DNA from: Bacteroidales bacterium
Lineage (GTDB): Bacteria; Bacteroidota; Bacteroidia; Bacteroidales; UBA932
Assembly (NCBI GenBank): GCA_024689985.1
Contig: JAILCZ010000152.1
Coordinates: 1 to 50,342, forward strand
DNA: 50,342 bases
Direction of reading: 5' to 3'
This document shows, one piece after another, positions 3,434 through 50,342 of the stretch (position 1 is the first letter of the stretch; each line of letters opens with the position of its first letter). The position numbers and the translations under genes are program-made. Under the pieces are notes generated by a model. That model searched no databases, was not told where the DNA came from, and was given only the letters and a program-made list of their open reading frames with translations.

Positions 3434-3446
3434 ATCTATTTCTTAT

Positions 3447-4784: not shown

Positions 4785-4809
4785 AGTTTACCAATGGTTG
4801 TTGCACTCC

Positions 4810-6159: not shown

Positions 6160-6187
6160 GATCCACCGATTAAAAAAAACAATGACA

Positions 6188-7447: not shown

Positions 7448-7474
7448 AATCCACCGATTTAAAAAACAATGACA

Positions 7475-8848
7475 CTACTTGCGCGTCAAATACCCATCCT
7501 TATCCAATAGCAGCACGTACTTGCTCGATTTAGGCATATTTGATTCGTACAAATTAAAATCATGTATCACATCATACTTCTCATCAATATCAGTTAGCTT
7601 AATATCCTCCATTATTTCGTACTTGCAATCGTAATAATCACGCACGACCTTCATCGGAGAGACTGCCTTTTCACCATAGTCATTGAAAACGGTAATACTT
7701 CCACAACGACATAAAGAATGTCTATACTGATAACAGTCTTTCTGCCCCCCAATAAGAGAAGCATTAACCACAGAAGTCATACGATGCTCATTAAAATTGA
7801 CCAAAAACAATCTTGGGTTTCCATATCCACTGATGGGATTTACCAATACAAGGTATGATTTAAGACCTCTCCTACAATGAACCCTTTTAAGCCAAAAGAA
7901 TACATTCTCTGTCCAATTCTCTTGACACAGTGCAGGGCCTATTAACTCAGTTTCCTCTTGAGTAAAACGGGATAGCGGTGTAGAGATAACCTTCTTAATG
8001 TCAATACTACGGCAAAAACCACTGTGGCATTTCGGCAAATCTAAAAGGACTATATCCTTACTATTATAATTGGCATAATCCAACGTATCAGATTGAAACA
8101 TTCTTCTTAATGAATCGCCATAAGCCTTACATAATAAGGGAAAAGAGTGTTTTTCGCGAGGGATAAACAGACTATGATTCTTAATAACAGAGAAGCGCCC
8201 ATTTTCATCCATTTGAAAATCTGTCAAATGACGAGATTGATTGGAAACATACCTTTGAACATTAACCTTGGAGCGATAACCGTTCTCATATAAACCAATC
8301 TTGTCCCCTTGAATTGTTGCCGTCAACGCATCCTTCCTCTCTATTGAAACACGGCCGGACACCTGTAAGATAGATTGAAGATAACCATTTCGTAAATTTA
8401 TAAGGAACACCGTAGAATCACCGCTAAAGTCCAACGCACAAACTAAATAACTATCAACTCCATTCTTTATTTCTATCCGTTTATCAAACAATTTAAAAAC
8501 CAAAGAATCACCATGAAGAAACATATCGGGATACATAGGATAAAACTCAAGGAATAAATGATAATGTAGATTTCTTGAGTTCATCTCCTTCCTTAATAAG
8601 GAATCCAAGATGGCAGACGACACCTGCCCCAAAGAGATAACGAACGAGGATTGGATATCCCTTATATCAACCCGCTTCAGTTCATCCAAAGGCAGGGACG
8701 GCATATCTTTCAAGACAATGTTCTGTCCCTCATAGTTGAAATAAATTATTTCCTCGTGGTACTCGTTCCACTTAACCCTGGCGTAACCACTAACGGAAGA
8801 AAATAACATCACAAATAATGATGTTATTGTAATCATTTTATTTAACAT
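7475..8848 (-). CDS. Hypothetical exported protein, paralog E (first gene of the array)
   Basis: 457 aa; first 89 nt identical to paralog B. Confidence 0.85.
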   Translation of the reverse strand: MLNKMITITSLFVMLFSSVSGYARVKWNEYHEEIIYFNYEGQNIVLKDMPSLPLDELKRVDIRDIQSSFVISLGQVSSAILDSLLRKEMNSRNLHYHLFLEFYPMYPDMFLHGDSLVFKLFDKRIEIKNGVDSYLVCALDFSGDSTVFLINLRNGYLQSILQVSGRVSIERKDALTATIQGDKIGLYENGYRSKVNVQRYVSNQSRHLTDFQMDENGRFSVIKNHSLFIPREKHSFPLLCKAYGDSLRRMFQSDTLDYANYNSKDIVLLDLPKCHSGFCRSIDIKKVISTPLSRFTQEETELIGPALCQENWTENVFFWLKRVHCRRGLKSYLVLVNPISGYGNPRLFLVNFNEHRMTSVVNASLIGGQKDCYQYRHSLCRCGSITVFNDYGEKAVSPMKVVRDYYDCKYEIMEDIKLTDIDEKYDVIHDFNLYESNMPKSSKYVLLLDKDGYLTRK

Positions 8849-9238: not shown

Positions 9239-9690
9239 TAAATTTGGAAATCGCAAGCCCATAGCCCGCGAAGGCCAAGCAGAGGTGCTATTTTTTGGCG
9301 GACGATGGTTTGCGGCAGACGAAGGCCACGCAAAGGTGCCTATTTTTGGCGGACAGCGGCTGGCGACTGACGAAGGCCACGCAGAGGCGCCAAAATTTGG
9401 AAATCACACGCCCGCAGCCCGCGAAGGCCAACCAAAGCCCCCGATTTTTGGCGGACGATGGTTTGCGGCAGACGAATGCCACGCAGAGGTGCCTATTTTT
9501 GGCGGACAGCGGCTGGCGACTGACGAAGGCCACGCAGAGGCGCCAAAATTTGGAAATCGCAAGCCCATAGCCCGCGAAGGCCACGCAGAGGCGCCTATTT
9601 TTGGCGGACAACGGCTGGCGACTGACGAAGGCCAAGCAGAGACGCCTATTTTTGGCGGACAGCGGCTGGCGACTGACGAAGGCCAAGCAA
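9239..9690. repeat. Tandem array of nine 51-bp units, three variants in order A-B-C-A-B-C-A-C-C
   Basis: The anchor CGAA(G/T)GCCA recurs at 9269, 9320, 9371, 9422, 9473, 9524, 9575, 9626 and 9677 (exact 51-nt period). Confidence 0.95.
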
Positions 9691-9847
9691 GGCGGCCATT
9701 TGATGGAAAGTGCAGGCGGGAGGCAACGGGCTGCCAGGCAGAATGGCTGTTATTTGGAGAGAGGAGGAGGTGGGATGGAGGAAAAAGAAAAAGGACCGAG
9801 GAAAACCTCGGCCCTGATTATTGGGATGTATTCGAATTCGTATACGA

Positions 9848-12800
9848 TTAGAATGTAAGTCTGAGTCCGAACTGCAGTCTCCAACGTGAATAGAAGTCAC
9901 TGTAAGTAAGCTCGTTGCCGAGGTACTTGTAGGTTGGAGTGTAGTTGCCGTCGGTACCCTGTGTCATTGCTGTGACTGAGAGGATCTGGCGGTTGTATGC
10001 TGATGCATAGTACATACCCCAGCTTCTGTTGAGAAGGTTGGAAGCGTTGAGGAGGTCTACGATGAACTGAACCTTGCGGCCCTTAGCCTTGTCGTAGATG
10101 AAGTCCTGGGTGAAGTGTACGTCGAAGTGATTCTCGAATGGAGCGATTCCGGCGTAGCGCTCTGACCACTGTCCGCGATGTGAGCTGAGGTAGTCGTCAC
10201 CCTGGATGAGAGCCTCGAACTGAGCTGCTGACTCTGTGTCTGCCCAGGTCATAAGGGCGATCTCGTCCTGTGTAGGGATGTACATAACTGAGTTGCCGTA
10301 CTGACCGTCACCGTTGAAGTCCTTGGACTCCTTCATAGTGTAGCAGAATCTCTGGCCGCTCTCTCCGGTGTATGTCACGCTGATTGATGATGACATAAAG
10401 CCGAGGTAAACAGGTGTGGTGTATGAAACGACTGCCTGAACCTTGTGAGGATGGTCGAAGAGTGAGTATGAAAGCTCCTCTGCGTTGGTGTCGAGTGAGT
10501 AGTTGTACTTCCAGTTAGAGTATGCGACTGATGATGTACCGTCGTTGACTGAGTATGAGTGTCCGAAGGTGTATGATGCCATCAAGTCGAGACCGAATGG
10601 GAATGACTTCTCAATCTTGCCAGAAAGGTTGTATGAATAACCCTTGTTGGTGTTGCCGAGGGCTACGATTGCAGAGTAGTCGCCGCTTGATACTGAATAG
10701 TAAGGAGCTGTCGCATCAACATCTGAACTTACAGCGTATGTCTTTGCTGACTTTGAGACAGCAAGGTTGTTGAAGAATACGTTGTTGAGAGTCTTTGAGA
10801 AGAGGCCTTCAGCCGTGAACTTCCAGCCGTCGAAGAGTTCCTTCTCGAAGGCGAGGTCGGCACGGAGTACCTGTGGGTACTTGAAGTCGTCGCTGAGTGT
10901 GTTGATGGTTGCGCCTGAACCTGAAGCAGAGAATACGCCAGCGAGTACGATGTCGTTGTAAGGATCGCTGGTAAGAGGAATGCTGCCAGGGTTCTTCTTT
11001 GAGATTGACTTAGACTCCATACCGGTGTTGTTGTATGCGTTTGAAAGCCAAACGAAAGGAACACGGCCGGTGAAGAGACCTACACCTCCACGGAGGAGAG
11101 TCTTGTGAGTGTCGTCAGTGAACCAACGGAAACCTACGCGTGGTGACCAGAGCGGTGTCTTCTTAGGAACGACGCCTACATACTGGTTGTTTGCTGTTGC
11201 AAATGTAGTTTCGTTGAACGTAGGGTTCTTAGTAGGCTTGTTGAGAAGCATAGGGATGTCCATACGGAGACCGTATGTGAGAGTGAAGTTCGTGTTAGGC
11301 TTCCACTCGTCCTGTGCGTAGAGACCGATCTGTGCAGCTCTTGTGGTAGCAGCCCAGCGGGTGTCGCCGCCTGTGAGCTCAGGATCTGAATATCTATAAT
11401 TGAACTGCTTGATCGTATCGTTGAAGAAATCGTTTATGGAATTGTATGTATATCCACCGTAAACGTACTGGAGGAACAGATTCTTGAAGCTGTAGATCTC
11501 ATTGTGAGTACCGAAGGTGATCTCGTGATTTCCCTTGTACCAAGAGAAGTTGTCCGTGATGGTAAAGGTATTGGAATCCATAGAGTTGGCACCTGAAGAA
11601 TACTCAGTACCGAGGTCGATGGCCACATTGTCCTGGATATATATATTTGCACCGTTGTATGGGCAGTCACGCTTGTCGCGGACGAGGACTGCAGATGCAC
11701 GGAACATATTTGACATCTCATCATTGATCTGGCTGTTGAGCTCGGCTACGAAAGTATTCGTAGTGTTTGACATCTTGTATGATGAGTTGTTGAAGTAATA
11801 TGTGTAAGCGCCTGAACCGTACTTGTCAGCATAAGCGTCAGCAAGCTGATAACGGAACATAAGCTTGTTGGTCTTGTTGATGTTCCAGTCGAGACGGGCA
11901 AGAGCGTTGATAGAACGGTCCTTGGCCTTGTGCTCGCCGTAAGACTCACCTGTGTTGCTTACGCCGTAGGTCTCCTCGTACTTCTGAATCATCGCAGCAG
12001 CCATAGCCTCGTTGAAGACGTTACCATAGCTTACACCGTTCCATACAACTTCCTCGCTGAGAGTCTTGGCATCGTAAGAGCCGTTTGAAGGAGAGTAAAC
12101 ATTAGGAACTTCCTTCTTGTAATACTCACCGCTGACGAAGAGGAAGAGCTTGTTCTTGATGATCGGGCCACCTGCCGTGAAACCATAGGTGTTGATAGCC
12201 TCGTCAGAATACTTTGTGCGGTTTTCAACATCCTTGCCGGCTGTAGTACCGATGAAGTTCTCATTGAGGAAATAGGTATAAGCAGAACCCTTGTACTCGT
12301 TTGTACCAGCCTTGGTGATGGCATTGATAGCACCACCCGTGAAGCCGGACTGACGGACATCGAACGGAGCGATTACCACCTGGATTTCCTCGATTGCATC
12401 GAGAGAGAAAGGATTGGCGCCCGTAAGTCCACCATTGGTACCTGAGCTTGAAAGACCGAAGGTGTCGTTAGCGACAGCACCGTCAATCTGAATACTGTTG
12501 TAGCGGTTGTTTGCGCCACCGAAAGAAATACCACCAGACTTGTTGATAGAAGCAAGCGGAGTGTACTTGACTACGTCATTGACACTTCTGTCAATCATAG
12601 GAGTACTTTCAATCGATGCCCTGCTCCAGCTTGTACCTGCACCTGTCTGGTTAGCGTTGAAACTCTTCTCCGCAACGACCGTAACAGCGTCGAGTTCGTT
12701 TGAAGAAGTCATAACAGTATTGAGCTCAAAAGCTTCACCGAGCTTGAGCACAACGTCGTTGTACTGCACAGTGTTCATTCCGATGAAGGAAACCTCAACC

Positions 12801-13039
12801 TTGTAAGGACCTCCTGAACGCATACCATTGATGACGAAACGGCCATCAACGTTAGCTGAAGAATAATACTGTGTACCTGAAGGAGTGTGAATCGCGATGA
12901 CGGCTGCACCAGCGAGGGCTTCACCGTTGTCATCAGTGATTCTACCATTTAGACTTGATGTTGTCACCTGGCCAAAGGCTACAACACTTGCAAAAATTGC
13001 TGCGATTACGAGCAAAATCCGCCTAATTGATTGACGCAT
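9848..13039 (-). CDS. Oar-like TonB-dependent receptor with N-terminal carboxypeptidase-regulatory-like domain
   Basis: Start reassigned to MRQSIRR (13039); signal peptide; plug motifs IDGAVAND, APFDVRQSGFTGGAINAITK; C-terminal QFGLRLTF. No susD neighbour. Confidence 0.9.
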   Translation of the reverse strand: MRQSIRRILLVIAAIFASVVAFGQVTTSSLNGRITDDNGEALAGAAVIAIHTPSGTQYYSSANVDGRFVINGMRSGGPYKVEVSFIGMNTVQYNDVVLKLGEAFELNTVMTSSNELDAVTVVAEKSFNANQTGAGTSWSRASIESTPMIDRSVNDVVKYTPLASINKSGGISFGGANNRYNSIQIDGAVANDTFGLSSSGTNGGLTGANPFSLDAIEEIQVVIAPFDVRQSGFTGGAINAITKAGTNEYKGSAYTYFLNENFIGTTAGKDVENRTKYSDEAINTYGFTAGGPIIKNKLFLFVSGEYYKKEVPNVYSPSNGSYDAKTLSEEVVWNGVSYGNVFNEAMAAAMIQKYEETYGVSNTGESYGEHKAKDRSINALARLDWNINKTNKLMFRYQLADAYADKYGSGAYTYYFNNSSYKMSNTTNTFVAELNSQINDEMSNMFRASAVLVRDKRDCPYNGANIYIQDNVAIDLGTEYSSGANSMDSNTFTITDNFSWYKGNHEITFGTHNEIYSFKNLFLQYVYGGYTYNSINDFFNDTIKQFNYRYSDPELTGGDTRWAATTRAAQIGLYAQDEWKPNTNFTLTYGLRMDIPMLLNKPTKNPTFNETTFATANNQYVGVVPKKTPLWSPRVGFRWFTDDTHKTLLRGGVGLFTGRVPFVWLSNAYNNTGMESKSISKKNPGSIPLTSDPYNDIVLAGVFSASGSGATINTLSDDFKYPQVLRADLAFEKELFDGWKFTAEGLFSKTLNNVFFNNLAVSKSAKTYAVSSDVDATAPYYSVSSGDYSAIVALGNTNKGYSYNLSGKIEKSFPFGLDLMASYTFGHSYSVNDGTSSVAYSNWKYNYSLDTNAEELSYSLFDHPHKVQAVVSYTTPVYLGFMSSSISVTYTGESGQRFCYTMKESKDFNGDGQYGNSVMYIPTQDEIALMTWADTESAAQFEALIQGDDYLSSHRGQWSERYAGIAPFENHFDVHFTQDFIYDKAKGRKVQFIVDLLNASNLLNRSWGMYYASAYNRQILSVTAMTQGTDGNYTPTYKYLGNELTYSDFYSRWRLQFGLRLTF

Positions 13040-13111
13040 AAATATTTTAAGAAAATTAAAGTATTTCTGATGTGCGAAGTTAATTAATTTTTTAAAAAAC
13101 TGAAATGTTTG

Positions 13112-13142
13112 TTTGCATATTAATACAATATCCGTATCTTTG
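13112..13142 (+). promoter_or_regulatory. metK promoter
   Basis: TTTG (13112-13115), 19-nt spacer, TATCTTTG (13135-13142). Confidence 0.75.
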
Positions 13143-13151
13143 CAGCACGAA

Positions 13152-13198
13152 ATGTGGACAGATTTGATTGCTTGCAACCACGTGAAAAAATGCTAAAA
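13152..13198 (+). ncRNA. SAM-II-class riboswitch aptamer in the metK leader
   Basis: P1 AUGUGG (13152-57)/CCACGU (13178-83), loop GAUUUG...UUGC, 3' GCUAAAA. These are SAM-II hallmarks, placed just after the promoter of SAM synthetase. Confidence 0.8.
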
Positions 13199-38953: not shown

Positions 38954-39556
38954 TTATTCTACTGAATTCATATCAATGAGATTGTTGAGCAGGGCATATA
39001 CGGTAAGACCTGCGACGGTCTTGATGCCCGTCTTTCTCGTGATATTCTTTCTATGGGTGATTACTGTGTAAATTGAAATATTGTACTCGTCCGCAATCTC
39101 CTTGTTGAGCATACCCTTGGCGACACAGACAAGAATTTCCTTCTCCCTGATGGAGAGTTCGTTACCCTCGGCCTTCGGAGCCTCGGCACGTGCGTCGAGG
39201 GCAGAGCGCATCTTGCGGATGATTACGGTCGGGATGTCATAGATGCTCACGACCTCATCGAACTGCTTGAGAATTTCCTCCCCCATCGCGATCGTCTCAA
39301 TTGCTATCACGGGAGCATCCGTAAACTCTCCCATAAGAGCTCTGGCATTTTTTCTGGAATCATAGTCGAACACCTGAGGGTCTATGATGACTATGTCCAC
39401 GTCCATATTCTTCAGTCGCGTCTCGCTGCTTCGGGTCAGGTCGGACAGGATACCGCAGACCTTGAATTCGCCAAGGTCCGAAAGGATGCTGTCCAGGCCC
39501 TTCGCAACCATCAGCGAAGGCACTATGAGAAGGACATTTTTCTTACTGTCGGCCAT
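38954..39556 (-). CDS. LuxR-type HTH regulator (CdhR/PG1237-like)
   Basis: C-terminal LSIREKEILVCVAKGMLNKEIADEYNISIYTVITHRKNITRKTGIK; degenerate receiver-like N-terminus; overlaps the hemerythrin-like gene. Confidence 0.9.
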   Translation of the reverse strand: MADSKKNVLLIVPSLMVAKGLDSILSDLGEFKVCGILSDLTRSSETRLKNMDVDIVIIDPQVFDYDSRKNARALMGEFTDAPVIAIETIAMGEEILKQFDEVVSIYDIPTVIIRKMRSALDARAEAPKAEGNELSIREKEILVCVAKGMLNKEIADEYNISIYTVITHRKNITRKTGIKTVAGLTVYALLNNLIDMNSVE

Positions 39557-40262
39557 TTTCTTCGATTCTGGTAACTATTGGAACAAGGATATTGTCCTCG
39601 ATTCTGGTATGCTTCACGAGGTCGATGTCAAGACGGTAGATCGCAATAAGGAGACGATTCCTGAGGGCATCGCTGCACTCTGCAGGAAGATACTTCATAA
39701 TTATGTTCTTGAGGTCGTTGAGAGCCTCGCTGATATTGCTGTGATTGTCCTCGAACTGGGCAATTGAGAATCCCTTGCGGTCCTCTCCGCGGAGGAGGGA
39801 TGCGACATAAGGGAAAACGACCTTCTCTTCATATCCGAAGTGATTGTCCAGCTCAGCCTTGTAATCATTAAAGAATTTCCAGATCACGGCCTGCTGCTTC
39901 TCTCCGCAAGGCTCAAGGAGCTTGCAGATATCCTCCTGCATCGCAATTACCGCATCCTCGAGATAATATGAGTGCGAATTGTGAAGATATTTGATGATGT
40001 CCGTTGGGTTGCCTTCCGAAAGGGCAGCTCCCGAAGGAACATAATCATCGAAGGTATAGACGTTGCACACCAGCAGAAGTGTCGCCACGTCAACGTCTGA
40101 CTTGGCGCAGGCGTCGGCGACGGTATGGTCGCTAAGTGACACGCTCACACCCAGTCTGGAGAGAATTGGAAGCAGATGATAGTTGAGGTCAATGAGGTCT
40201 GCAAGCCTCATCTGCTCCGAAAATAGAACGTCTCTCTGGATTGTCTTTTTTAAAGTTGTCAT
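39543..40262 (-). CDS. Hemerythrin/Ric-like di-iron domain protein (PG1236-like)
   Basis: YLHNSHSYY, HFGYEEKVVFPY, H..IEDNILVP; ScdA-like N-terminus. Confidence 0.85.
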   Translation of the reverse strand: MTTLKKTIQRDVLFSEQMRLADLIDLNYHLLPILSRLGVSVSLSDHTVADACAKSDVDVATLLLVCNVYTFDDYVPSGAALSEGNPTDIIKYLHNSHSYYLEDAVIAMQEDICKLLEPCGEKQQAVIWKFFNDYKAELDNHFGYEEKVVFPYVASLLRGEDRKGFSIAQFEDNHSNISEALNDLKNIIMKYLPAECSDALRNRLLIAIYRLDIDLVKHTRIEDNILVPIVTRIEENGRQ

Positions 40263-40303
40263 AATTACTGTTGAGTAGGGATTTCAAAGATACAATTTTT
40301 CTT

Positions 40304-40340
40304 AAAACAAAAGGAGGCCACCTTCACAGGCAGCCCTCCT
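40304..40340 (-). terminator. Intrinsic terminator
   Basis: Minus RNA AGGAGGGCUGCC-UGUGAA-GGUGGCCUCCU-UUUGUUUU. Confidence 0.85.
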
Positions 40341-40414
40341 CGGAACAATTAAAAGGATCTAAACTTTCATTTTATTATAGCCTTTACAAACTATATGGCT
40401 TCAATCTCAATCTA
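40304..40414 (-). ncRNA. Candidate ~110-nt small RNA
   Basis: Own -7 element TATCTTTG (40427-40420), upstream operator-like box and strong terminator; no meaningful ORF between them. Confidence 0.6.
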
Positions 40415-40449
40415 TGTTGCAAAGATATGGGTAGAACGGATGCCAGTCA

Positions 40450-40467
40450 ATCCCAAGAAGTTGGTAT
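40450..40467. promoter_or_regulatory. Palindromic operator-like box (sRNA promoter)
   Basis: ATCCCAA-GAAG-TTGGTAT, 11/14 match to ATCCCTA-N4-TAGGGAT, 22 nt from the -7 element. Confidence 0.65.
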
Positions 40468-42524
40468 TATGAAGCATAACTGTGTAACCCGCCGAGAATG
40501 AAGTTCACGCCGAAGTACGTGATCAGCACGCACAGAAAGGCGAGAATTGCAAAGACGTGCATCACGCGAGGCTTTTCCAGGGCCTTGAGCGACACTTTGT
40601 GCATCGCGGCCGCATAGACAAGCAGGGTGACGAGGGCCCAGGTCTCCTTCGGATCCCAGGACCAGTATGTACCCCAGCTGACATTCGCCCAGATGGCGCC
40701 AAGGAAGGTGCCGATTATGAGCAGGAACTCAGCCGGATATAGAATTACCGTGGAAATTGCCGCGAGTTCGTCGCTGGCCTCGTCGTTGCGCACGACCAGG
40801 CCCATAACTCCCAGCAGGGCCATCATACCGAAGAGGGTGTATGAAATCATCATACAGGCCACGTGGATTGACAGCAGAGGGGACGAGAGTACCGGCATCA
40901 GCGGGGTGATGCGCGGATTTGACTCGCCGAGGACGGCGACAAGCATAGCGAAGCCGGCAAGCATCAGGCCCAGAGGCTGGATTACCGGGAACCGTCTTCC
41001 GACAACGGCGGTAAAGACTGAAGACATCCACGCAATGAGGAGCATCATCTCGAAGCCTCCCGCCATAGGGATATGGCCCTGGACGAACCAGCGGAGTCCG
41101 AGAACAACCGTAAGGTAAACACCAACGACGGCAGAAAGCAGGCTGAGGGCATTCACGACCGGACGCGGAAGACGCCTGCGACGCGATATGGCAAGTCCCA
41201 TCCAGATGAAGACGATCATTCCAAGGGTGACGCAGATCATTGCCAGCATCATCGGCCGGCCCAGTTTGTTGTAGATTTTCTCCGCCTTGAGATGAGACGC
41301 GTCCGGAAGAACATCCGATGCCACCTTTTCCTGATACAGGCGCATTTTGGCGATTACCCTTGAGGCTTCCTCATAATCTTTGTTGAAGAAAAGCTCGCCC
41401 AGATACGGAAAACACTTCTTGATGAATGTCCAGGTATCGGTATCCATATCTACCGGAAGAATCTGTGCGGAAGAGTACCATACCACCTTTCCGTCCTCCT
41501 CATAAGGGAAGACCTTCACGATTTTTTGGGCGCAGGCGCTCTGGAAGGCGTATATCTTCTCGGCTTCCTTAGCCGTTCCCACTTCCTTCTTCTTTATCTT
41601 CATCGGCACATCAGCCCAGGAGCTGCCGTAGAACATCCAGCCCGTGAACACCTGTTCCGTCGTATATCCCCCTACCGACGGCTTGCCATATACTTTCATC
41701 ACATAGTCCCTGGCCATCGTCTGAAGAGGACAGATTCTGCCGTTGTAATAGACGTAGAGGTCTCCTATCTGTTCTGCGACATCCTCAGGAAGCACCTTCG
41801 GCGCGGCTGAAGCCGTATGCGAGAAGCCCAGGATCAGGGCAATGACGGCCATTCCCTTTCCGAGACGCGAAAGAGCCCTGCGGAAAGTTGATTTGGAATC
41901 AAAAAAGAAGGATACGAGTCCCACAAGAAGGCAAAAGTACCCGATATATGTCAGCGTGACTCCCCAAGGATCATCACTGACGGTGAGGATGGTTCCATTT
42001 TCATCCTCATCATATGCGCTCTGGTAGAAACGGTATCCTCCTGTCTTAAGAATCTTGTTCATACTGATCACGGCCTCCTCCGATCCGTTCACGAGAACCG
42101 TGCTGCTGTAATCCATCGGCATTTCGGAGCCCGGATAGCGGCTGACCTCGAATGATTTCAGGGTGATGGAAAACGGAAGTTCCGCCTTCCCGCCTTCCTC
42201 GAGTTCCATCTCGCTCACCGTCTCTCCAACCCTGATCTTCATAAGACCGGTCCTTGACGTAAGGTGAGTCACAAGGGCTCCTACGAGGATGAGCACGAAG
42301 GAAAGATGGATTATCGCAACTGCAGGGCGGCGGATTGCCTTGCTTTTGAAAAGCCAGACAAGGCCGGAAATGACGGCCACGGCCCACAGAAGGATGAAAA
42401 GAGGAGAATGATAGAACAGGCCGAAGGCCTTGTCCGGGCCGGAGACTTTTTCAACGACCGTGGCAGCCATCATCATCAGGATAATGGCTGCCATTGATAT
42501 GAGCGATATTCTTTTAGATAGCAT
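40467..42524 (-). CDS. ccsA: Fused System II cytochrome c maturation protein (CcsBA, ResB plus CcsA)
   Basis: IIHLSFVLILVGA, YRFYQS, LSIHV, WWD domain GAIWANVSWGTYWSWDPKETW, GLHSY. Confidence 0.92.
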   Translation of the reverse strand: MLSKRISLISMAAIILMMMAATVVEKVSGPDKAFGLFYHSPLFILLWAVAVISGLVWLFKSKAIRRPAVAIIHLSFVLILVGALVTHLTSRTGLMKIRVGETVSEMELEEGGKAELPFSITLKSFEVSRYPGSEMPMDYSSTVLVNGSEEAVISMNKILKTGGYRFYQSAYDEDENGTILTVSDDPWGVTLTYIGYFCLLVGLVSFFFDSKSTFRRALSRLGKGMAVIALILGFSHTASAAPKVLPEDVAEQIGDLYVYYNGRICPLQTMARDYVMKVYGKPSVGGYTTEQVFTGWMFYGSSWADVPMKIKKKEVGTAKEAEKIYAFQSACAQKIVKVFPYEEDGKVVWYSSAQILPVDMDTDTWTFIKKCFPYLGELFFNKDYEEASRVIAKMRLYQEKVASDVLPDASHLKAEKIYNKLGRPMMLAMICVTLGMIVFIWMGLAISRRRRLPRPVVNALSLLSAVVGVYLTVVLGLRWFVQGHIPMAGGFEMMLLIAWMSSVFTAVVGRRFPVIQPLGLMLAGFAMLVAVLGESNPRITPLMPVLSSPLLSIHVACMMISYTLFGMMALLGVMGLVVRNDEASDELAAISTVILYPAEFLLIIGTFLGAIWANVSWGTYWSWDPKETWALVTLLVYAAAMHKVSLKALEKPRVMHVFAILAFLCVLITYFGVNFILGGLHSYAS

Positions 42525-44172
42525 TGATGAACTTCACGATTGCATCACGGTCCTCCTTGTCCAGGGCACGGAATGCTTCGACCGAAGAGCGGGCATCGCT
42601 CTCAGATGAGCCGTGCCACATAATTGCCTCGATCACATTGCGTGCGCGCCTGTCGTGGAGTCTGTCCGAATGGCCGGCACACAGAGGAGAAAGTCCCCTG
42701 CCCCAGAGAGGGGTGGTGCGGCACCATCCGGTGCGGATGTCATTGACCATATGGAGTTTATGCTGAATCATATCCGTATAAGGCCAGATGGTCTGGTTAG
42801 GATACTTAGGCAGCTTCTTGACCTTGCCGTCGATTGTCTTCTGACCGTTCACGAAGAAGAGGTTAGGGTCATAGGCATCGTCATCGCCCGTAGTCCAGCT
42901 TGGCTTGTGACAGTGGGCGCAGCCGATCTCGCGGAAGAGGTAGCGTCCCTTCTGCACCGTCTCGTCGTCGAGGTCACGGGCAGCAGGCACTGCAAGTCCT
43001 CTGTGCCAGATCATAAAGTCAGCATAATTCTCATCGGTCATTTCAACCGGAAGATTCGTACTTGTAAGATAGTTGTAGATATCCGTCTCCACGTCACCGG
43101 TATATTCGACGCCCGTAAGCTCCTCGAACTGGTCCTTCGGGAAGTAGTCGTAGAACACGGCCTGTACTTCAGGGTCCTGTGAGGATGTCTTGGCGTAGTA
43201 ATCGCCGGAGAGGTTGAGATAATGATATCTTCTGTCGGAACGGGTCACGTTCGTGATGTTCCAGATTGCGTTCGCACCAGGACCGTCCTGCACCTTGCCG
43301 CGTGAAAGGGCGTAGGTGAAGCGGCGGGCCACCTTGGTACCGTCGCCCTGCTTTGAGTTGGAGTACATACTTACCCACTGACCGTTGGCATAGTATGCAG
43401 GATTGAGGTTCACTCCGTATTTTTCCTCGAGCTGATACTGGGCGAGGAGGTCGTCGTCGGAGATTGCGTCAAGAAGACCGGTTCCGTAGATTCCGATCGT
43501 GGATTCGAGTTTCACTCCGTACTCGCCCTCAGCCAGTTCAGTCTGGTCGGTCGCAAGTACCTTTCCGCCATAGAAGGCGTCAAGAGGGATGGTTACCTCC
43601 GGATAGATGAGGCTGTAAGTCTCGCCGTCATCGAATTTGTTGCCCCACTCGTCGGTGTACTCAAGCCAGTCGATCGTGATCTTGCTTTCGTCGATAGGAG
43701 CCTTGAAAGGGCCGTTGGCCTTTGTCTGAGGCATACCTGCCACTGAGCCCACATAGGCCTCGGTAGCCTTGTTATAGACTACGAGAAGATAGCCGTTGCC
43801 ATATTCGTTGGCCTTGTATGAGGTCACCCTCTTTCCGTAGCCGTAGCCTGGATGGCAGTCGATGCACGAAGCACGCACATAGGCAGGGCCGAGGCCGTTG
43901 AACGGCTTGGTGCTCGTATTGTACGTGCGCTCGAAGAAGTATTCTCCGTAGTTGAATTCGTCATCCATTCCTGCCTCGCTTACAGCAGGAGAGGCGTCCT
44001 CGTATGCGGACGCCGTCGTGTTGAAGGTGGTGCCTAATTCACCACCAGCGTAAGTCTCGATCTTAATCTCGTCGTCGGTGATTTTCCATTCCGCCGAAGA
44101 GACCTTGTCGTCGTTGCAGGCTGCAGCAGCAGCCAATGCAACGATCGAAAGGATAATTGTTCTGTTGGTCAT
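42514..44172 (-). CDS. Di-heme oxidoreductase (DUF1111-like) lipoprotein
   Basis: Lipobox AAAC-NDDK; NGLGP...CIDCH and GRYLF..IGCAHCH; RTTPLWG, LHD.RAR...EAIMWH. Confidence 0.9.
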   Translation of the reverse strand: MTNRTIILSIVALAAAAACNDDKVSSAEWKITDDEIKIETYAGGELGTTFNTTASAYEDASPAVSEAGMDDEFNYGEYFFERTYNTSTKPFNGLGPAYVRASCIDCHPGYGYGKRVTSYKANEYGNGYLLVVYNKATEAYVGSVAGMPQTKANGPFKAPIDESKITIDWLEYTDEWGNKFDDGETYSLIYPEVTIPLDAFYGGKVLATDQTELAEGEYGVKLESTIGIYGTGLLDAISDDDLLAQYQLEEKYGVNLNPAYYANGQWVSMYSNSKQGDGTKVARRFTYALSRGKVQDGPGANAIWNITNVTRSDRRYHYLNLSGDYYAKTSSQDPEVQAVFYDYFPKDQFEELTGVEYTGDVETDIYNYLTSTNLPVEMTDENYADFMIWHRGLAVPAARDLDDETVQKGRYLFREIGCAHCHKPSWTTGDDDAYDPNLFFVNGQKTIDGKVKKLPKYPNQTIWPYTDMIQHKLHMVNDIRTGWCRTTPLWGRGLSPLCAGHSDRLHDRRARNVIEAIMWHGSSESDARSSVEAFRALDKEDRDAIVKFINAI

Positions 44173-44181
44173 ATGTATAAA

Positions 44182-45339
44182 TTACTGTGCAATTGTCGTT
44201 TCTGCAGCTTCGAGGACCTCCACGAGAGCAGCGCAGGCTTCCATTGCAGCATCACACTTGGTGTTTGTCTTGCTGTAGTTCTTCACGAACGGATAGTCCA
44301 TTGCGTTGATTGCTGTGAGGGCTGCCTCGATGGCTGATGAGATGGCGTCGTCAGTATCTGCGTCATTCTTTGCAAAGTATGCGTGGAGTGATGATGCTGA
44401 GTTTCTCTCTGATGAGGTGCGGCCACCATAATAGACATTCTCGACAGATGTGATGTTGTCATAGAAGTCAGTGATTGAGTTGTAGCTGTATGGTGACTCG
44501 ATGTAGCTCTCGTCCTCTCCGGTGTGTGCCTTGCCGATCTTTGATGTTCCTACCTCGTCGGCGATGTCAGCTGATGACTGGAGGATTGACTGCATAGCGT
44601 GTGTCCAAGAGCGGAAGGTCGATCCGGCCTCGCCTGATGCGAGAAGGTTCTCTCCGTAGTAGAGGTCGCCGCCTGCGACTGTGGTGTTGAGCTCAAGCTC
44701 TTCCTCTACGTATGTGAGACGGTCGCCTGCTGCCTCGCCTCTCCAGGCTGCGTCAAGCTGTGCGGTTCTGTTCTTGAGGTCTCCTGACACGGCTACAGCA
44801 TAGATGAATTCGTTGTCAGTAATCTCTGATGCGCTCTTTGCCTCACCGTCTTCGAAGAGGATGTATTCGATTCCGTGGAATCCGAGAAGGGCGTTTCCGA
44901 GGTTCTCACCAGCGTAAACGGCTCCGTCCTCGCCTTCGAGGTTCTTGAGCATCTCAGGGCTGGCCATAAGGTTGTTGAATGCGTCCTCATCGAGTGGCCA
45001 AGAGTCGATGTGAGGGTCGATACCGAAGTCCGTCGCAGCTCCGAAGAGGAATGCCTCGCTCTTCTCCCACTGCTCACGAGCCTGGAGGAAAACCTTTGCG
45101 GCTGCCGCTACGTTTGCGTCTGTCTTTGATGCTGCGGCTGTGCTGAGGGCTTCCTCGAGTTCCTCGGTATAGTCTGCGAGTGATTTGTATGTAGGATAGA
45201 CGGTATTTGTAAGGAAGTCGGCTGCGATTTCCTTGAATTCTGCATCCTTTGCTGATGAGTCATTTGCATCGTCGTTGTCGCAAGAAGTGAATGCGAGTAC
45301 TGATGCGGCCATTGCGGCCATTACGAAAAATTTTTTCAT
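44182..45339 (-). CDS. Imelysin-family (IrpA/LruB-like) iron-regulated lipoprotein
   Basis: Lipobox FTSC-DNDD; WEKSEAFLFG, IDSWPLD, GFHGIE (GxHxxE), ESPYS; very acidic. Confidence 0.9.
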   Translation of the reverse strand: MKKFFVMAAMAASVLAFTSCDNDDANDSSAKDAEFKEIAADFLTNTVYPTYKSLADYTEELEEALSTAAASKTDANVAAAAKVFLQAREQWEKSEAFLFGAATDFGIDPHIDSWPLDEDAFNNLMASPEMLKNLEGEDGAVYAGENLGNALLGFHGIEYILFEDGEAKSASEITDNEFIYAVAVSGDLKNRTAQLDAAWRGEAAGDRLTYVEEELELNTTVAGGDLYYGENLLASGEAGSTFRSWTHAMQSILQSSADIADEVGTSKIGKAHTGEDESYIESPYSYNSITDFYDNITSVENVYYGGRTSSERNSASSLHAYFAKNDADTDDAISSAIEAALTAINAMDYPFVKNYSKTNTKCDAAMEACAALVEVLEAAETTIAQ

Positions 45340-45376
45340 GTTGATTATTTATTTGATTACACTACCTTCTATTGAA

Positions 45377-46663
45377 TTATCTCCTGAAGAAGCCTGTATA
45401 GGTGATGCCGATATTGATGCTCGGCTCGTTGTTGTACTGGCTCTTGAAGAATCTATGTGAGTATTCTGCCTTGAGAATGATGTTGCTTATTGGACTGTAG
45501 TTGATTCCGACGGCCATCCTGGTCTTGTCTGACCACTCATAGTCAGTCTGGCCTGATGGTGCGACATAAGAGTCATAGTATTCGCCGCGGACGAAGGCGA
45601 AGAGTTTCTGGCCTTCGAGCTTCCTTGAATGAAGGAAAGTGAACACATCATATCCTGCCTCTGCTCCGAATGCCATCGCATTCTCGCCCACGAGGGTATG
45701 GGAATATGGAGAGAATGTGGAGTTGTCGGAGTTCTTGTTGCTGGTTCCGATTGCAGCGGCGTTGTCGAGGTAGCCGTAGTCGGCATTTCCTCTGGCAATC
45801 ACCTTGCTGCCTTTGTATTCGAAGTCGAATGAACCGATGAGCACCGTGCCGGCGACACCGGTGCTGGTCGAGCCTGACGAGCTGACCGTTCTTGGATATG
45901 CGTCGTTGTCGGTGCCTCCTACATAGCCAGAAAGGCCGAGGCGAAGGTTTCTGAAGCTGTAGTTATCCACTCTGAAGGCAAAGGCGAGATCGTTTGCCAT
46001 CGTGTATTCGTAAGGCGATGCTGATCCGCCGCTCACCCAGCCGTCATTCGAGAAGAAGCGGCTGTTTAGTCCAGGAAGGACCTGTGCCGTATAGCCCCAG
46101 TCTCCGAGTCGTCCGAAGACGCTCACTCCGATCTGGTGCCAGGTGCAAGGGATGATCGTACTTTCACCTTCCTGACGGTAAACCGTGAAGAATTTGTCCG
46201 GTTCGTGGCGGTAGTTCGTGAGACCGACCGGGACGATGACCATTCCGGCCCTTACATTTATTGCAGGATTGAAGGTCTTCTGGAGCCAGAACTGCTCGAG
46301 ATAGACTTCTCCTCCCCTTTCAATTTCGTGTTCCACTTCGATCGCCTCATCGCCTTCCACTTCGATGGAAGCCTCGACGCCTCCGTGTTCGAACTCAATC
46401 TCAGAGCCCATTGACCAGCCTTTTCCGAAGTCATAACCCATCATTACCACTACGTGTGGGAGATCCACCTGACTATGGCCCTGAGAATCTTTATATCTGT
46501 CGGCGTACATATATCTGTACGGGGAGTTGCTGTAGAAATTATGAGAATAGACGGCCTCGCCATAACCTCCGATTACGAATCGGGTGGAGTCCTGAGCGGA
46601 CAGGTTGAAAAATGTCAGAACCGTCAATAAAACACACAAAACTAACTTTTTCATCTGAAGCAT
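45377..46663 (-). CDS. Outer-membrane porin-like beta-barrel
   Basis: Signal peptide (start 46663 or 46654); IGGYGE, SEIEFEHGG, VYLEQFW, VPVG..N..HEP..F; acidic loop. Confidence 0.8.
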   Translation of the reverse strand: MLQMKKLVLCVLLTVLTFFNLSAQDSTRFVIGGYGEAVYSHNFYSNSPYRYMYADRYKDSQGHSQVDLPHVVVMMGYDFGKGWSMGSEIEFEHGGVEASIEVEGDEAIEVEHEIERGGEVYLEQFWLQKTFNPAINVRAGMVIVPVGLTNYRHEPDKFFTVYRQEGESTIIPCTWHQIGVSVFGRLGDWGYTAQVLPGLNSRFFSNDGWVSGGSASPYEYTMANDLAFAFRVDNYSFRNLRLGLSGYVGGTDNDAYPRTVSSSGSTSTGVAGTVLIGSFDFEYKGSKVIARGNADYGYLDNAAAIGTSNKNSDNSTFSPYSHTLVGENAMAFGAEAGYDVFTFLHSRKLEGQKLFAFVRGEYYDSYVAPSGQTDYEWSDKTRMAVGINYSPISNIILKAEYSHRFFKSQYNNEPSINIGITYTGFFRR

Positions 46664-46707
46664 AATTTTTACAGATGCAAAGTTAGTTTCGTGCGGAAGT
46701 AGGGGCA

Positions 46708-46725
46708 ATCATTAAATTTAGGGAT
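46708..46725. promoter_or_regulatory. Palindromic operator-like box (porin operon promoter)
   Basis: ATCATTA-AATT-TAGGGAT, 12/14 match, 22 nt from the -7 element TAACTTTG (46685-46678). Confidence 0.7.
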
Positions 46726-46791
46726 TCTTCAGGCCCCCGAATCCCCATATGATGTTAGCCAAAAACGAACAGCCTCGTCAATAGCGAACGG

Positions 46792-49323
46792 CTACACTAT
46801 GAGCGTCGCTATTTGGTATGCTACAAAGGCCGCGATCCAGGCGACAACCATCGTCGTGGCACAGATGATTATGGCCCAGCTCCACCTGTTGGTCTCGTTC
46901 TTGATTGCCACGAAGGTAGCGATGCACGGGAAGTACAGGAGGACGAAGACCATAAAGGCTACGGCTGCCGGAAGGCTCACCGTGGAGAGGAGGGCCTGCT
47001 GCAGCTGGGTGTCCTCGGACATCGTGTCTGCGTCAGTTTCGCTCACGGCTGCGCCCTGGCTGTACATCACGCCAAGGGTGGATACGACGAGCTCCTTGGC
47101 GACGACTCCGGTAAGGAGTCCGATGTCCATCTTCCAGTTGAATCCAAGAGGGGCAAGGGCCGGCTCCACGGCCTTTCCGAGCAGGCCGATGTAGGAATGT
47201 TCCTGCTGCTTTTCGTAATATACATTCACGCTGTCCGCCCACATTGCCTTCTGCTCGGCGGCGAAGGCGAGGGCCGTGCTGTCAGGGGTCTGGATGGTCT
47301 CAAGAGCTGAAATCTGCTCTGATACCGCTGCGAAATTCTCCTGTGCGAGGTTGAGTTTTTCGCTTGTCGGGAAATAGCCCAGGAACCAGATGATGACTGA
47401 TCCGATGAGGATGGTCGTCGCCATCTTCTGGAGGTACTGACGACCCTTCTCCCAGGTATGGCGCCAGATTGCCTTTCCGGTAGGCACACGGTATGGAGGA
47501 AGCTCCATTACGAACGGCAGGTCGTCATCCTTGATGAAGCGGCTGACGACGACTGCTGCCAGAAGTGCCAGGACGATGCCGAGGAGATAGATCAGCAGCA
47601 GGGCAAGAGCCGAATGTGCCGGGAAGAAAGCTCCGGCCACAAGGACGAATATAGGAAGTCTGCCCGCGCAGGACATAAATGGAATGATTGCAATCGTTAT
47701 GAGGCGGCTCTTGCGGCTCTCAATCGAGCGGGTCGCCATAATTGCCGGCACGTTGCAGCCGAAGCCCATCACCATCGGGATGAATGACTTGCCGTGCAGG
47801 CCGATCTTGTGCATCAGCTTGTCCACGATGAAGGCCGCACGGGCCATATATCCGGAGTCCTCCATCAGGGAGATGAAGAAGTACAGGATCATAATGTTCG
47901 GCAGGAAGACGAGGACGCTTCCCACGCCGGCGATACAGCCGTCCACCACGAGGTCCTTGATCCAGCCGTCAGGCATAAATGAGGCCACGAATTCTCCGAA
48001 TGTCGCCACGAGCCAGTCGATCCAGTCCATCGGGTAGTTTCCTAGGGTGAATGTCGCCTGGAAGATGATGTACAGCAGGAGGATGAATATCGGGAATGCC
48101 AGCCACTGGTTTGTGACGACAGAGTCGATCCTGTCAGTCAGCGTCCTGTGGTGCTGGGTTTCCGTATGACGCTCGTATGTCTCAGCAAGGGCTCCCTGGA
48201 TGAATGCATATTTGGCATCGACGATGGCAGATTCGAGGTTCGTGTGCATAAGCTTCTCTATCCTCTGTCCCTCGTCATATCTTGCCGCGATTATGCTGTC
48301 GTGATTCGGCAGGGCCTCTACCACTTTCTCAATCTGGGAGTCGTTCTCCAGGTATTTGATCGCCAGATATCTGGTAGAGTATTTCGAGCGGATGTCCTTG
48401 TCTTCCTGGATGAGGAGCTTGATCCTGTCGATGCTCTTTTCGATTTCCGCGCCGTGGTTGATGTGGATATGGCGGCTGAGCTTAGGGTCTGCCTGGGTGT
48501 AGATATGGATGATCGTCTCCAGCAGCTCAGGGATTCCTTCGCCGTCTCGGCAGACCGTCGGGCATACAGGTATGCCGAGGAGGTAGCCGAACTGCTTGAT
48601 GTCAAATTTATCCCCCGTCGCGCGGAGCTCGTCGTACATATTCAGAGCCATCACCACGCGCAGGTTCATATCGATCACCTGTGTCGTAAGGTAGAGGTTG
48701 CGCTCGATGTTTGATGCATCGACGACATTCACTACGACGTCAGGTGTATTTTCAATGAGGTTTTTGCGGACATAGAGTTCTTCGGGAGAATAAGCCGAGA
48801 GAGAATATGTTCCCGGCAGGTCAACGAACACGAATTTATATCCCTTGTACTCGAATTTTCCCTCCTTGGCATCCACCGTCACGCCGCTGTAGTTGCCCAC
48901 GTGCTCGTGGCTGCCGGATGCTATGTTGAAGAGGGATGTCTTACCGCAGTTAGGATTTCCCACCAGGGCTACGCGGATCACGTGCCCGCGCTCCTCTGCC
49001 AGTCTGGACATCTCCGCGTCGAGTCTCTCCTCGTCGAAGATATCCTCAGGTACGATGGCATCAAGACCTGTCTGTTCAATGAGGGACTGCTTGGCCTCGG
49101 ATGCACTGATTACTTCAATCTGCCTGGCCTCCTCCCTTCTGAGAGAAAGCTTATATCCTAGTATTTCGTATTCGATTGGGTCCTTTAGCGGTGCATTCAG
49201 AATGACGCGCACCTTCTTTCCCGTGATGAAGCCCATCTCAATGAGCCTCTTTCTGAACGAGCCGTGGCTGCCGACCTTGGCAATCACACCCTGCTCGCCT
49301 GTCTGTAAGTCAGATAATTTCAT
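46792..49323 (-). CDS. feoB: Ferrous iron transporter, FeoA-FeoB fusion
   Basis: N-terminal FeoA (KRLIEMG...APLKDPIEY), G1 GNPNCGKT, GNYSGVTV, DLPGTYSL, NMYD, GFGCNVP, FVMELPPY. Confidence 0.96.
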   Translation of the reverse strand: MKLSDLQTGEQGVIAKVGSHGSFRKRLIEMGFITGKKVRVILNAPLKDPIEYEILGYKLSLRREEARQIEVISASEAKQSLIEQTGLDAIVPEDIFDEERLDAEMSRLAEERGHVIRVALVGNPNCGKTSLFNIASGSHEHVGNYSGVTVDAKEGKFEYKGYKFVFVDLPGTYSLSAYSPEELYVRKNLIENTPDVVVNVVDASNIERNLYLTTQVIDMNLRVVMALNMYDELRATGDKFDIKQFGYLLGIPVCPTVCRDGEGIPELLETIIHIYTQADPKLSRHIHINHGAEIEKSIDRIKLLIQEDKDIRSKYSTRYLAIKYLENDSQIEKVVEALPNHDSIIAARYDEGQRIEKLMHTNLESAIVDAKYAFIQGALAETYERHTETQHHRTLTDRIDSVVTNQWLAFPIFILLLYIIFQATFTLGNYPMDWIDWLVATFGEFVASFMPDGWIKDLVVDGCIAGVGSVLVFLPNIMILYFFISLMEDSGYMARAAFIVDKLMHKIGLHGKSFIPMVMGFGCNVPAIMATRSIESRKSRLITIAIIPFMSCAGRLPIFVLVAGAFFPAHSALALLLIYLLGIVLALLAAVVVSRFIKDDDLPFVMELPPYRVPTGKAIWRHTWEKGRQYLQKMATTILIGSVIIWFLGYFPTSEKLNLAQENFAAVSEQISALETIQTPDSTALAFAAEQKAMWADSVNVYYEKQQEHSYIGLLGKAVEPALAPLGFNWKMDIGLLTGVVAKELVVSTLGVMYSQGAAVSETDADTMSEDTQLQQALLSTVSLPAAVAFMVFVLLYFPCIATFVAIKNETNRWSWAIIICATTMVVAWIAAFVAYQIATLIV

Positions 49324-49384
49324 GTTCTCGACCTCTGCAATAATTGTCCGGATGCAAAGGTAAGGAACATAGTTCTTTTATAAC

Positions 49385-49402
49385 ATCCCTATTTATGGTT
49401 AT
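49385..49402. promoter_or_regulatory. Palindromic operator-like box (feoAB promoter)
   Basis: ATCCCTA-TTTA-TGGTTAT, 11/14 match, 22 nt from the -7 element TACCTTTG (49362-49355). Confidence 0.65.
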
Positions 49403-49751
49403 CTTTCTTCTTTCTCTCCTGTTCCGCCAGCCACTCGGCCCTCCTCTTCGCATAATACTCCTTGCGCTTCGGATTCTCCGGGAACCAGCCCTTCAGGATA
49501 CGCTTTTCCTGGTCGAAGACCTCCTTCACACCCCAGAAGAAAGAGAACGCGGCAGCTCCAAGAATCGTAGAACCGACAAAATTGCAGGTAAATAAGGAAG
49601 CCACAAGACAGATGATTCCGCTCACGAAGAAGAACCACCAGAACTTCCTTCCGAAATAATACTCGCCCTTGATCACGATAGGATGAAAAATACCAATGAT
49701 CAAAAAAGTTGCCGCACCTACGACTATGCCACCAAAATAAAGATTCTCCAT
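49389..49751 (-). CDS. DUF4491-like small membrane protein
   Basis: Start MENLYFGG; FLIIGIFHPIVIKGEYYFG, W..KEVFDQEKRILKGWFPENPKR. The longer ORF in the track reads through repeats. Confidence 0.85.
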   Translation of the reverse strand: MENLYFGGIVVGAATFLIIGIFHPIVIKGEYYFGRKFWWFFFVSGIICLVASLFTCNFVGSTILGAAAFSFFWGVKEVFDQEKRILKGWFPENPKRKEYYAKRRAEWLAEQERKKKDNHK

Positions 49752-50054
49752 AACTAAAATTCGAGCTGCAAAGATACGCCAAATTTTCACAACCATCCCT
49801 ATCACTAATGATGGTTCATCTCCCCCTCTCCCCAAAACCAGCCCTTCCCACATAGCCCTCCTCTCCCCTCCTGGTAAATCTGAATTCTCCCGATATCTAT
49901 CCTTCGGCTCGGCAGAGGAGCCGATTGGAGAGGCACCGGCATCCGCTTTCGAGTGAGTGAGCGGGCAAGCGGAGCGCGACAGTGCCGCTATCCGGGAAGC
50001 CGCCCGAATGACCGAAGCCGTTCGTTTCCAGGCAACTGACAAGCATAGCTGATT

Positions 50055-50342
50055 TGTTTGTCCCGAAAACAGCCGTCCTCCGTGGATTTCACGGCTAGCA
50101 GGTGGGTGTTGTCCCGAAAATGCCCGTCCCACGTGGAGAAGATCGGGTTGCAGGTGGGTGTTGTCCATAAAAAGGGCGTCCTGCGTGGATTTCGCGGGTC
50201 GCAGGTGGGTGTTGTCCATAAATAAGGCGTCCTGCGTGGATTTCGCGGGTCGCAGGCGGGTGTTGTCCATAAATAAGGCGTCCTGCGTGGATTTCGCAGG
50301 TTGCAAGTGGGTGTTGTCCATAAAAAGGGCGTCCTGCGTGGA
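50055..50342. repeat. Tandem array of at least six 51-bp units, truncated by the window end
   Basis: The anchor TTGTCC recurs at 50058, 50109, 50161, 50212, 50263 and 50314. Confidence 0.95.

Follow-up and report, generated by a model that had tools for sequence, protein, structure and literature searches.

Introduction

The closest described relatives of the system reported here are PG1236/CdhR (PG1237) of P. gingivalis and BT0519/BT0520 of B. thetaiotaomicron. We analysed a 50,342-nt stretch of Bacteroidales DNA (positions 1 to 50,342 of contig JAILCZ010000152.1, assembly GCA_024689985.1; hereafter the window), which is contig C92 of a 1.77-Mb genome labelled G000. Like these two systems, the window carries a hemerythrin gene followed by a LuxR gene (about 200 aa) with the helix-turn-helix (HTH) at the same residues; fused forms, iron inducibility and a role as activator of hmuY and PG1178-81 are the other points of likeness. 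The window also carries an 18-bp palindromic box at a fixed distance from the -7 element of several promoters. The CdhR-type LuxR protein encoded next to it quite likely binds this palindrome and would thereby activate iron-uptake promoters under iron scarcity.

Deletion of cdhR lowers hmuY 9.7-fold and deletion of PG1236 lowers it 15-fold; under nitric oxide stress, loss of cdhR brings PG1181 down 10-fold, PG1019 3.6-fold and PG1236 2.4-fold (PMC11018363). A CdhR shift was observed with the PG1549 region, and the available part of the same paper gives no defined CdhR site, guesses at half-palindromes and asks for more study. The mechanism of CdhR regulation is called unclear in PMC10434189. 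The regulator and its iron inducibility are already known; compared with published CdhR, the full dyad as its site, the position of that dyad, the order-wide breadth of the regulon, the RIC ligands with the RIC-type sensor and the small RNA (sRNA) are newly proposed here. We found no published account of the box, the regulon breadth, the RIC-type sensor or the sRNA, with the limit that a CdhR site may already be mapped in figures of Wu 2009 and Chawla 2010 (both cited in PMC11018363) and that the IroR preprint may hold supplementary data relevant to the sRNA.

A palindromic box phased with the -7 element

Four 18-mers, at 40450, 46708, 49385 and 49795, lie at the coordinates and with the mismatch counts reported in a sequence-only reading that preceded this work (Table 1). 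The exact 22-nt gap to a minus-strand TAnCTTTG, claimed for the first three (Boxes 1 to 3), also holds. The site at 49795 does stand 18 nt from such an element, but its regulatory role is doubtful, this spacing occurring in 0 of 29 DUF4491 loci of relatives. Of two proposed half-sites, that at 46741 turned out to be a weak full site 33 bp upstream of Box 2, which is within the modal second-site offset (31-33 bp), and that at 40276 found no support (-3.1 bits, downstream of the second -7 element). Within the window the number of sites is marginal: 5 matches were found against a shuffle mean of 1.77, and 5 of 100 shuffles reached 5. Genome-wide, 876 TAnnTTTG elements yielded 14 pairs with a site (at most 3 mismatches), 6 of them at 22 nt and at most 2 at any other distance; 3 of these 6 fall outside the window.

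Conservation was scored with the pattern box-N22-TAnnTTTG, one mismatch allowed. It is present in 116 of 151 genus genomes (reversed control, 5 matches) and in 157 of 251 genomes of the order, with 361 sites against 44 for the control in the 250 genomes other than the window's own. A relaxed pattern matches 61/61 Bacteroides-genus genomes. When a matrix trained on 41 pattern hits was run on 79 held-out loci, the 22-nt distance accounted for 29 of the 96 matrix sites and each other distance for 3 or fewer. Directly 3' of the box, at two bases that the search pattern does not cover, 39 of the 41 sites have T at the first and 32 have G at the second, and this TG is read as belonging to a -33 TTG. 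The refined consensus is ATmCCyA-N4-TrGGkAT then TG, 22 nt (at times 21 or 23) 5' of the Bacteroidales -7 element. The spacing is not wholly fixed: in 120 genomes, 159 sites have the 22-nt and 53 the 21-nt distance, and the xusA box has 23 nt. Among 146 promoters, 23 of 45 second sites fall 31-33 bp upstream. A spacing peak at -13 was discarded as an artefact, because TAnnTTTG occurs inside the box. The motif is genuine and extends well beyond the window: what had been described as a putative regulon survives in its shared site and fixed spacing, but its extent is order-wide, not local.

In the start-site supplement of PMC7366714, the box centre is at -43.5 or -44.5 at eight B. thetaiotaomicron starts, namely those of BT_0507, BT_0517, BT_0519, BT_2065 and BT_2409, a secondary BT_4572 start and two orphan starts. 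In the available part of that supplement, rows for BT_0498 and BT_1219 are absent, BT_2481 and BT_3633 have internal or antisense rows only, and the box is missing at the primary start of BT_4572. In E. coli, NarL activates ogt via 7-2-7 sites at -44.5 and -77.5 and yeaR via a single site beside the -35 element (PMC7419079). Like NarL at these promoters, the Bacteroidales system combines a NarL/FixJ-type HTH with a 7-2-7-like dyad that abuts the upstream promoter element, is centred at -43.5/-44.5 and may have a second site about 33 bp upstream. Unlike NarL, it has no kinase adjacent, its receiver is degenerate or swapped for a RIC domain, and its signal is apparently iron, not nitrate. In its geometry the box resembles a NarL-type class II activator site, at a fixed position abutting the upstream promoter element, and its core is similar to the NarL heptamer repeat. 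The earlier proposal of a class II activator is supported by the phasing, but not in its placement at the -33 position, since the box covers roughly -52 to -35 and adjoins the -33 element.

Target genes

The three 22-nt sites that this genome has outside the window stand 5' of a TonB receptor-DUF4876-DUF6850-M16 cluster, of a ZIP transporter gene and of a gene for a Trep_Strep membrane protein; the matrix added a fourth, untrained site 5' of TetR and an ABC transporter. Two strong boxes of the same genome are out of register: C20:4848, 44 nt 5' of the pckA -7 element, and C61:8967, about 70 nt 5' of a TonB receptor-DUF4876 promoter.

For a tally of targets, 49 pattern-selected sites with a downstream open reading frame (ORF) were taken and 47 scanned, two short doubtful ORFs being dropped; LuxR-selected loci were left out against bias. 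The first gene was FeoB in 13 cases, a TonB receptor in 11, the module porin in 4, RIC in 3, TetR in 1 and PepSY in 1 (33/47). The remaining 14 were other genes, several after long non-coding leaders. Order-wide, boxes mostly precede feoAB, TonB receptors, the porin-imelysin module, TetR/ABC and the hemerythrin-LuxR operon, and boxed promoters occur in gut, rumen and oral Bacteroidales. In G465, a complete Bacteroides-genus genome, the box stands 5' of TetR/ABC, flavodoxin, the RIC-LuxR pair, a DUF4374-PepSY receptor locus, the imelysin module, two DUF4876 receptor loci, enolase, a UvrD-type helicase and glucosamine-6-phosphate deaminase; at the hmu promoter of this genome the right half alone is in register, and one more site lies upstream. 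In B. thetaiotaomicron, iron depletion induces the same gene families, with rises of 16- to 676-fold at the top of the list (PMC10434189, Table 5), and most boxed loci of that species are strongly induced (PMC10434189).

The adjacent CdhR-type regulator as the probable binder

The window LuxR protein has a degenerate receiver-like N-terminus and a GerE HTH at residues 133-188. No receiver Pfam match was found in it and no kinase among the neighbouring genes; the intact receiver and cognate kinase of a canonical two-component system are missing here, and in 8 fusions the receiver is missing altogether. It is the single CdhR-type HTH of its genome (124.4 bits; next match, 32.7). The HTH profile matches 171 of 251 genomes of the order, and sites track it: at least one site is found in 131/170 HTH-positive against 25/80 HTH-negative genomes, and at least two in 77/170 against 3/80. 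For the 21-nt spacing there were 47 sites in 77 HTH-positive and 6 in 43 HTH-negative genomes.

A promoter known to depend on CdhR gives a further link. Locus L164, fetched by a published primer, has the gene order of P. gingivalis hmu, with peptidase C10, HmuY and a TonB receptor. Over 8 kb, the top-scoring site (22.7 bits, against 10.8 for the runner-up) is the one at the hmuY promoter, where it is in register and has a tandem site 32 bp upstream; this is 1 of about 5 cdhR-dependent P. gingivalis promoters and the one checked for the box. A primer scan of the genome contigs for cdhR gave no match. The window hemerythrin-LuxR pair is 37% and 34% identical to the pair in locus L182. Phasing at the -33 TTG, HTH co-occurrence, the sole HTH of its kind in the genome and the box at hmuY together back the adjacent LuxR protein as the probable binder, as had been suggested.

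Several points weigh against this assignment. The HTH search scored no more than 25 candidates in any one genome, and related genomes are not independent. The 22-nt site is absent from 39 of 170 HTH-positive genomes, and the 25 HTH-negative genomes mentioned above carry one. Among boxed genomes, G203 (5 sites), G230 (3) and G172 (2) have neither the close HTH nor the RIC partner. The box stands 5' of the RIC gene in just 31 of 99 loci, so autoregulation of the RIC-CdhR operon is common, not universal. Orthology of the window LuxR protein to PG1237 is based on synteny, size and domain position, not sequence. From the literature, unstressed PG1181 drops just 1.3-fold without cdhR and CdhR binding to a PG1551 promoter fragment is unconfirmed (both PMC11018363), and BT_2409, with its strong box, is missing from the iron-depletion table of PMC10434189.

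The LuxR proteins of G203, G230 and G172 are only more distant ones, though their recognition helix is similar, and two of these proteins are encoded beside a site. Several NarL/LuxR proteins with a common recognition helix might then read the box, CdhR being one binder and some sites belonging to unrelated regulons. Boxed genomes without the RIC-CdhR pair do carry such paralogs, one of which adjoins a site in G230 and in G172. We nevertheless consider it improbable, as the window genome has its one CdhR-type HTH and the targets are mostly iron genes; for this window it is also compatible with the CdhR explanation. In loci L152 (G172) and L154 (G230), LuxR genes with a near-identical recognition helix and without a RIC partner stand beside boxes; one of the two is HTH-only (about 66 aa), and the G172 gene precedes thiS and a sulfur-metabolism gene.

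Still less probable is a Fur-family protein bound to the box, as repressor or apo-activator. The window genome has two Fur-family genes, the targets are iron genes, and feoAB of B. fragilis is reported to be Fur-dependent (PMC6460266, PMC5552952), which also speaks against CdhR. However, the box is found in 0 of 6 feoB promoters from five Bacteroides-genus genomes, and 5 of these 6 promoters carry a different AT-rich palindrome, which fits the reported Fur control. The strict upstream phasing suits activation, and sites track the LuxR HTH, the one of the two families that was tallied across the order. As had been noted, the boxes are unlike a Fur box, differing at 7-9 of 19 positions from that of E. 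coli, which was used for comparison; they differ from the Bacteroides feoAB palindrome at 10-11 of 22. The AT-rich palindrome (L305-L309), which is likely a Fur/PerR-family box, has similar sites in the window genome (C122:2363, C126:13326, C22:8636), 5' of dps and rubrerythrin.

A third reading makes the motif part of the promoter proper, an extended element for an alternative or housekeeping sigma factor and not a transcription-factor site, and could appeal to the constant distance and to the way the box runs into the -33 TTG. It is hardly credible, since the motif is dyad-symmetric, recurs 31-33 bp upstream and accompanies only a few of the 876 -7 elements, which are of the ordinary housekeeping type.

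The RIC-like hemerythrin partner

The hemerythrin gene adjoins the LuxR gene in 30 of 30 loci and in 8 of them is fused to the HTH, where it replaces the receiver-like domain. Six ligands of di-iron type are invariant in 20 sequences (H97, H141, E145, H174, H218 and E222). The closest solved relatives, by sequence and by fold (predicted model, pLDDT 92.6), are ScdA and YtfE; the cut-off of TIGR03652, the RIC equivalog, was missed (60.7 against 204.7 bits). Like YtfE and ScdA, the protein has an ScdA-like N-domain and a hemerythrin-like bundle with four His and two Glu invariant. Unlike them, it is coupled or fused to a DNA-binding domain, which makes a sensor likelier than a repair enzyme.

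A predicted RIC-CdhR complex scored 0.36 against 0.00 for the best control, which lends weak support to an interaction: 116 of 157 solved pairs and 2 of 215 mismatched pairs attained the mark, but those that did so with a score of no more than 0.60 comprise only 18 of the 157 solved pairs and both passing mismatches. The runs share at least 95% of contacts, with a partner pLDDT of at least 79. Because loss of PG1236 lowers the targets, the RIC-like protein would be a co-activator, and LuxR likely needs it.

A candidate small RNA downstream of Box 1

Downstream of Box 1, about 110 nt end in a terminator-like hairpin before the second -7 element (z -2.7). Box 1 is placed as a promoter box, as had been claimed, but it would first drive this candidate sRNA rather than the RIC-LuxR operon directly; transcription possibly reads through into the operon. 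An alignment of 11 relatives shows conservation of the hairpin and of two unpaired segments, and a model search found the candidate in 39 of 150 genus genomes. The box is immediately upstream in 28 of 30 candidate-sRNA loci, including loci where the RIC gene is not next. The candidate has no match in Rfam, where one snoRNA match fell below the gathering score. A small ORF within it was rejected by eye, the alignment showing no conserved frame. An own promoter, a terminator and conserved unpaired seeds, the usual marks of an sRNA, are all predicted for it.

In a pairing scan of 1394 start regions of the window genome, 9 of 23 motif-defined iron proteins ranked in the top 5%; in 90 shuffles that kept the anti-start pentamer, 5 or fewer did so. 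The protein set is partly post hoc, two of its four motifs having been added after the top hits were seen, and the two prior motifs alone gave 5 of 16. Desulfoferrodoxin, a radical SAM enzyme, rubrerythrin and PFOR are among the best-ranked predictions. Of 7 rubrerythrin genes examined, 5 have a leader with which the second segment is predicted to pair over 11-16 nt, tracking a one-base difference between genomes. For PFOR, both segments match in the window genome only, and most of 17 listed starts share just the start-codon complement. In G465, two box-driven non-coding stretches have a different seed, complementary to the PFOR start of that genome. Ranking by whole-core duplexes was uninformative for targets, and frdB was dropped as a conserved target (a match in the window genome, 0 of 5 relatives).

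From its sequence features, Box 1 probably drives a RyhB-like iron-sparing sRNA. Like Fur/RyhB and IroR, the system would join an iron-uptake regulon to an sRNA predicted to silence iron proteins. Unlike them, it has an activator, not a repressor, the candidate is without an Rfam match, and the IroR start is without a box. No RyhB homolog is known in Bacteroides according to the available part of a 2026 review (PMC13750123).

IroR itself was considered as a box-driven RNA and rejected, since its published start lacks the box (bioRxiv 2025.09.08.672848; PMC7366714); two orphan start sites neighbouring it do have one. IroR (BTnc022, PMC7366714) starts just after BT0520, overlaps the listed terminator of BT0520 and faces a box-driven orphan start. 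With this placement, the operon may account for the iron induction of IroR, and deleting IroR may affect the adjacent gene.

Further short non-coding stretches that follow a box and end in a terminator, some with related and some with different seeds, were seen in L042 and L043 (G018, G140), L145, L149 and L182, the last with two paralogous copies. Such stretches suggest several sRNA families under the same box.

Proposed mechanism and significance

A CdhR dimer would bind the NarL-like 7-2-7 core centred at -43.5/-44.5 and contact RNA polymerase; in some cases another dimer, bound 31-33 bp upstream, would assist it. The RIC-like partner would replace the kinase as input, and an empty or damaged di-iron centre in it may switch CdhR on, the iron-free form being the presumed active one. 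In some genomes the RIC-CdhR operon would feed back on itself, and one box would drive the predicted RyhB-like sRNA, blocking translation of iron proteins. We hold it to be an evenly balanced proposition that the system is a Fur-independent master activator, with a RIC protein repurposed as di-iron sensor and CdhR acting via the box on uptake genes and on hitherto unrecognised RyhB-analogue sRNAs (seeds tracking rubrerythrin, PFOR and other iron-protein starts).

If this is true, the box gives Bacteroidales a Fur-independent iron switch and probably an iron-sparing sRNA. How Bacteroidales sense iron is an open question, which a site, its position, a regulator and candidate sensor and sRNAs make testable in B. 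thetaiotaomicron. Regulons could be predicted in uncultured gut and rumen genomes, with iron roles assigned to genes of no known function, and the box may serve as an iron-responsive promoter part for engineered commensals.

Features of the window

Table 1. Boxes, promoter elements and genes of the box-associated region, in window coordinates.
Feature	Position	Strand	Remarks
Box 1	40450..40467	.	21.8 bits; overlaps ccsBA stop
-7 element TATCTTTG	40420..40427	minus	22 nt past Box 1
Candidate box-driven sRNA	40304..40415	minus	two conserved single-stranded segments; intrinsic terminator (hairpin about 40313-40341)
Second -7 element	40285..40292	minus	immediately 5' of RIC-like gene; box at 22 nt absent; likely basal promoter
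RIC-like gene (YtfE/ScdA-like hemerythrin protein)	39543..40262	minus	PG1236/BT0519 type
CdhR-type LuxR/NarL regulator	38954..39556	minus	
Box 2	46708..46725	.	13.1 bits; 5' of porin-imelysin-DHOR-ccsBA operon
Weak tandem site upstream of Box 2	46741..46758	.	4.8 bits; 33 bp off
-7 element TAACTTTG	46678..46685	minus	22 nt past Box 2
Target operon of Box 2	40467..46663	minus	
Porin-like protein	45377-46663	minus	in Box 2 operon
Imelysin	44182-45339	minus	in Box 2 operon
Di-haem oxidoreductase (DHOR)	42514-44172	minus	in Box 2 operon
ResB-CcsA fusion (ccsBA)	40467-42524	minus	in Box 2 operon
Box 3	49385..49402	.	18.5 bits; overlaps DUF4491 stop; feoAB promoter
-7 element TACCTTTG	49355..49362	minus	22 nt past Box 3
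FeoA-FeoB fusion	46792..49323	minus	target gene of Box 3
Fourth site	49795..49812	.	11.3 bits; 18 nt from DUF4491 -7 element (49769-49776); off-phase, function doubtful
DUF4491 gene	49389..49751	minus	

Elsewhere in the window, two different intergenic tandem arrays with a 51-bp period occupy 9240-9701 and 50058-50342. Five adjacent ORFs of 419-472 aa without Pfam match (2015-8848) come after a TonB-type outer membrane gene (9848-13177), and an identical 18-mer is found at 4744 and 8808.

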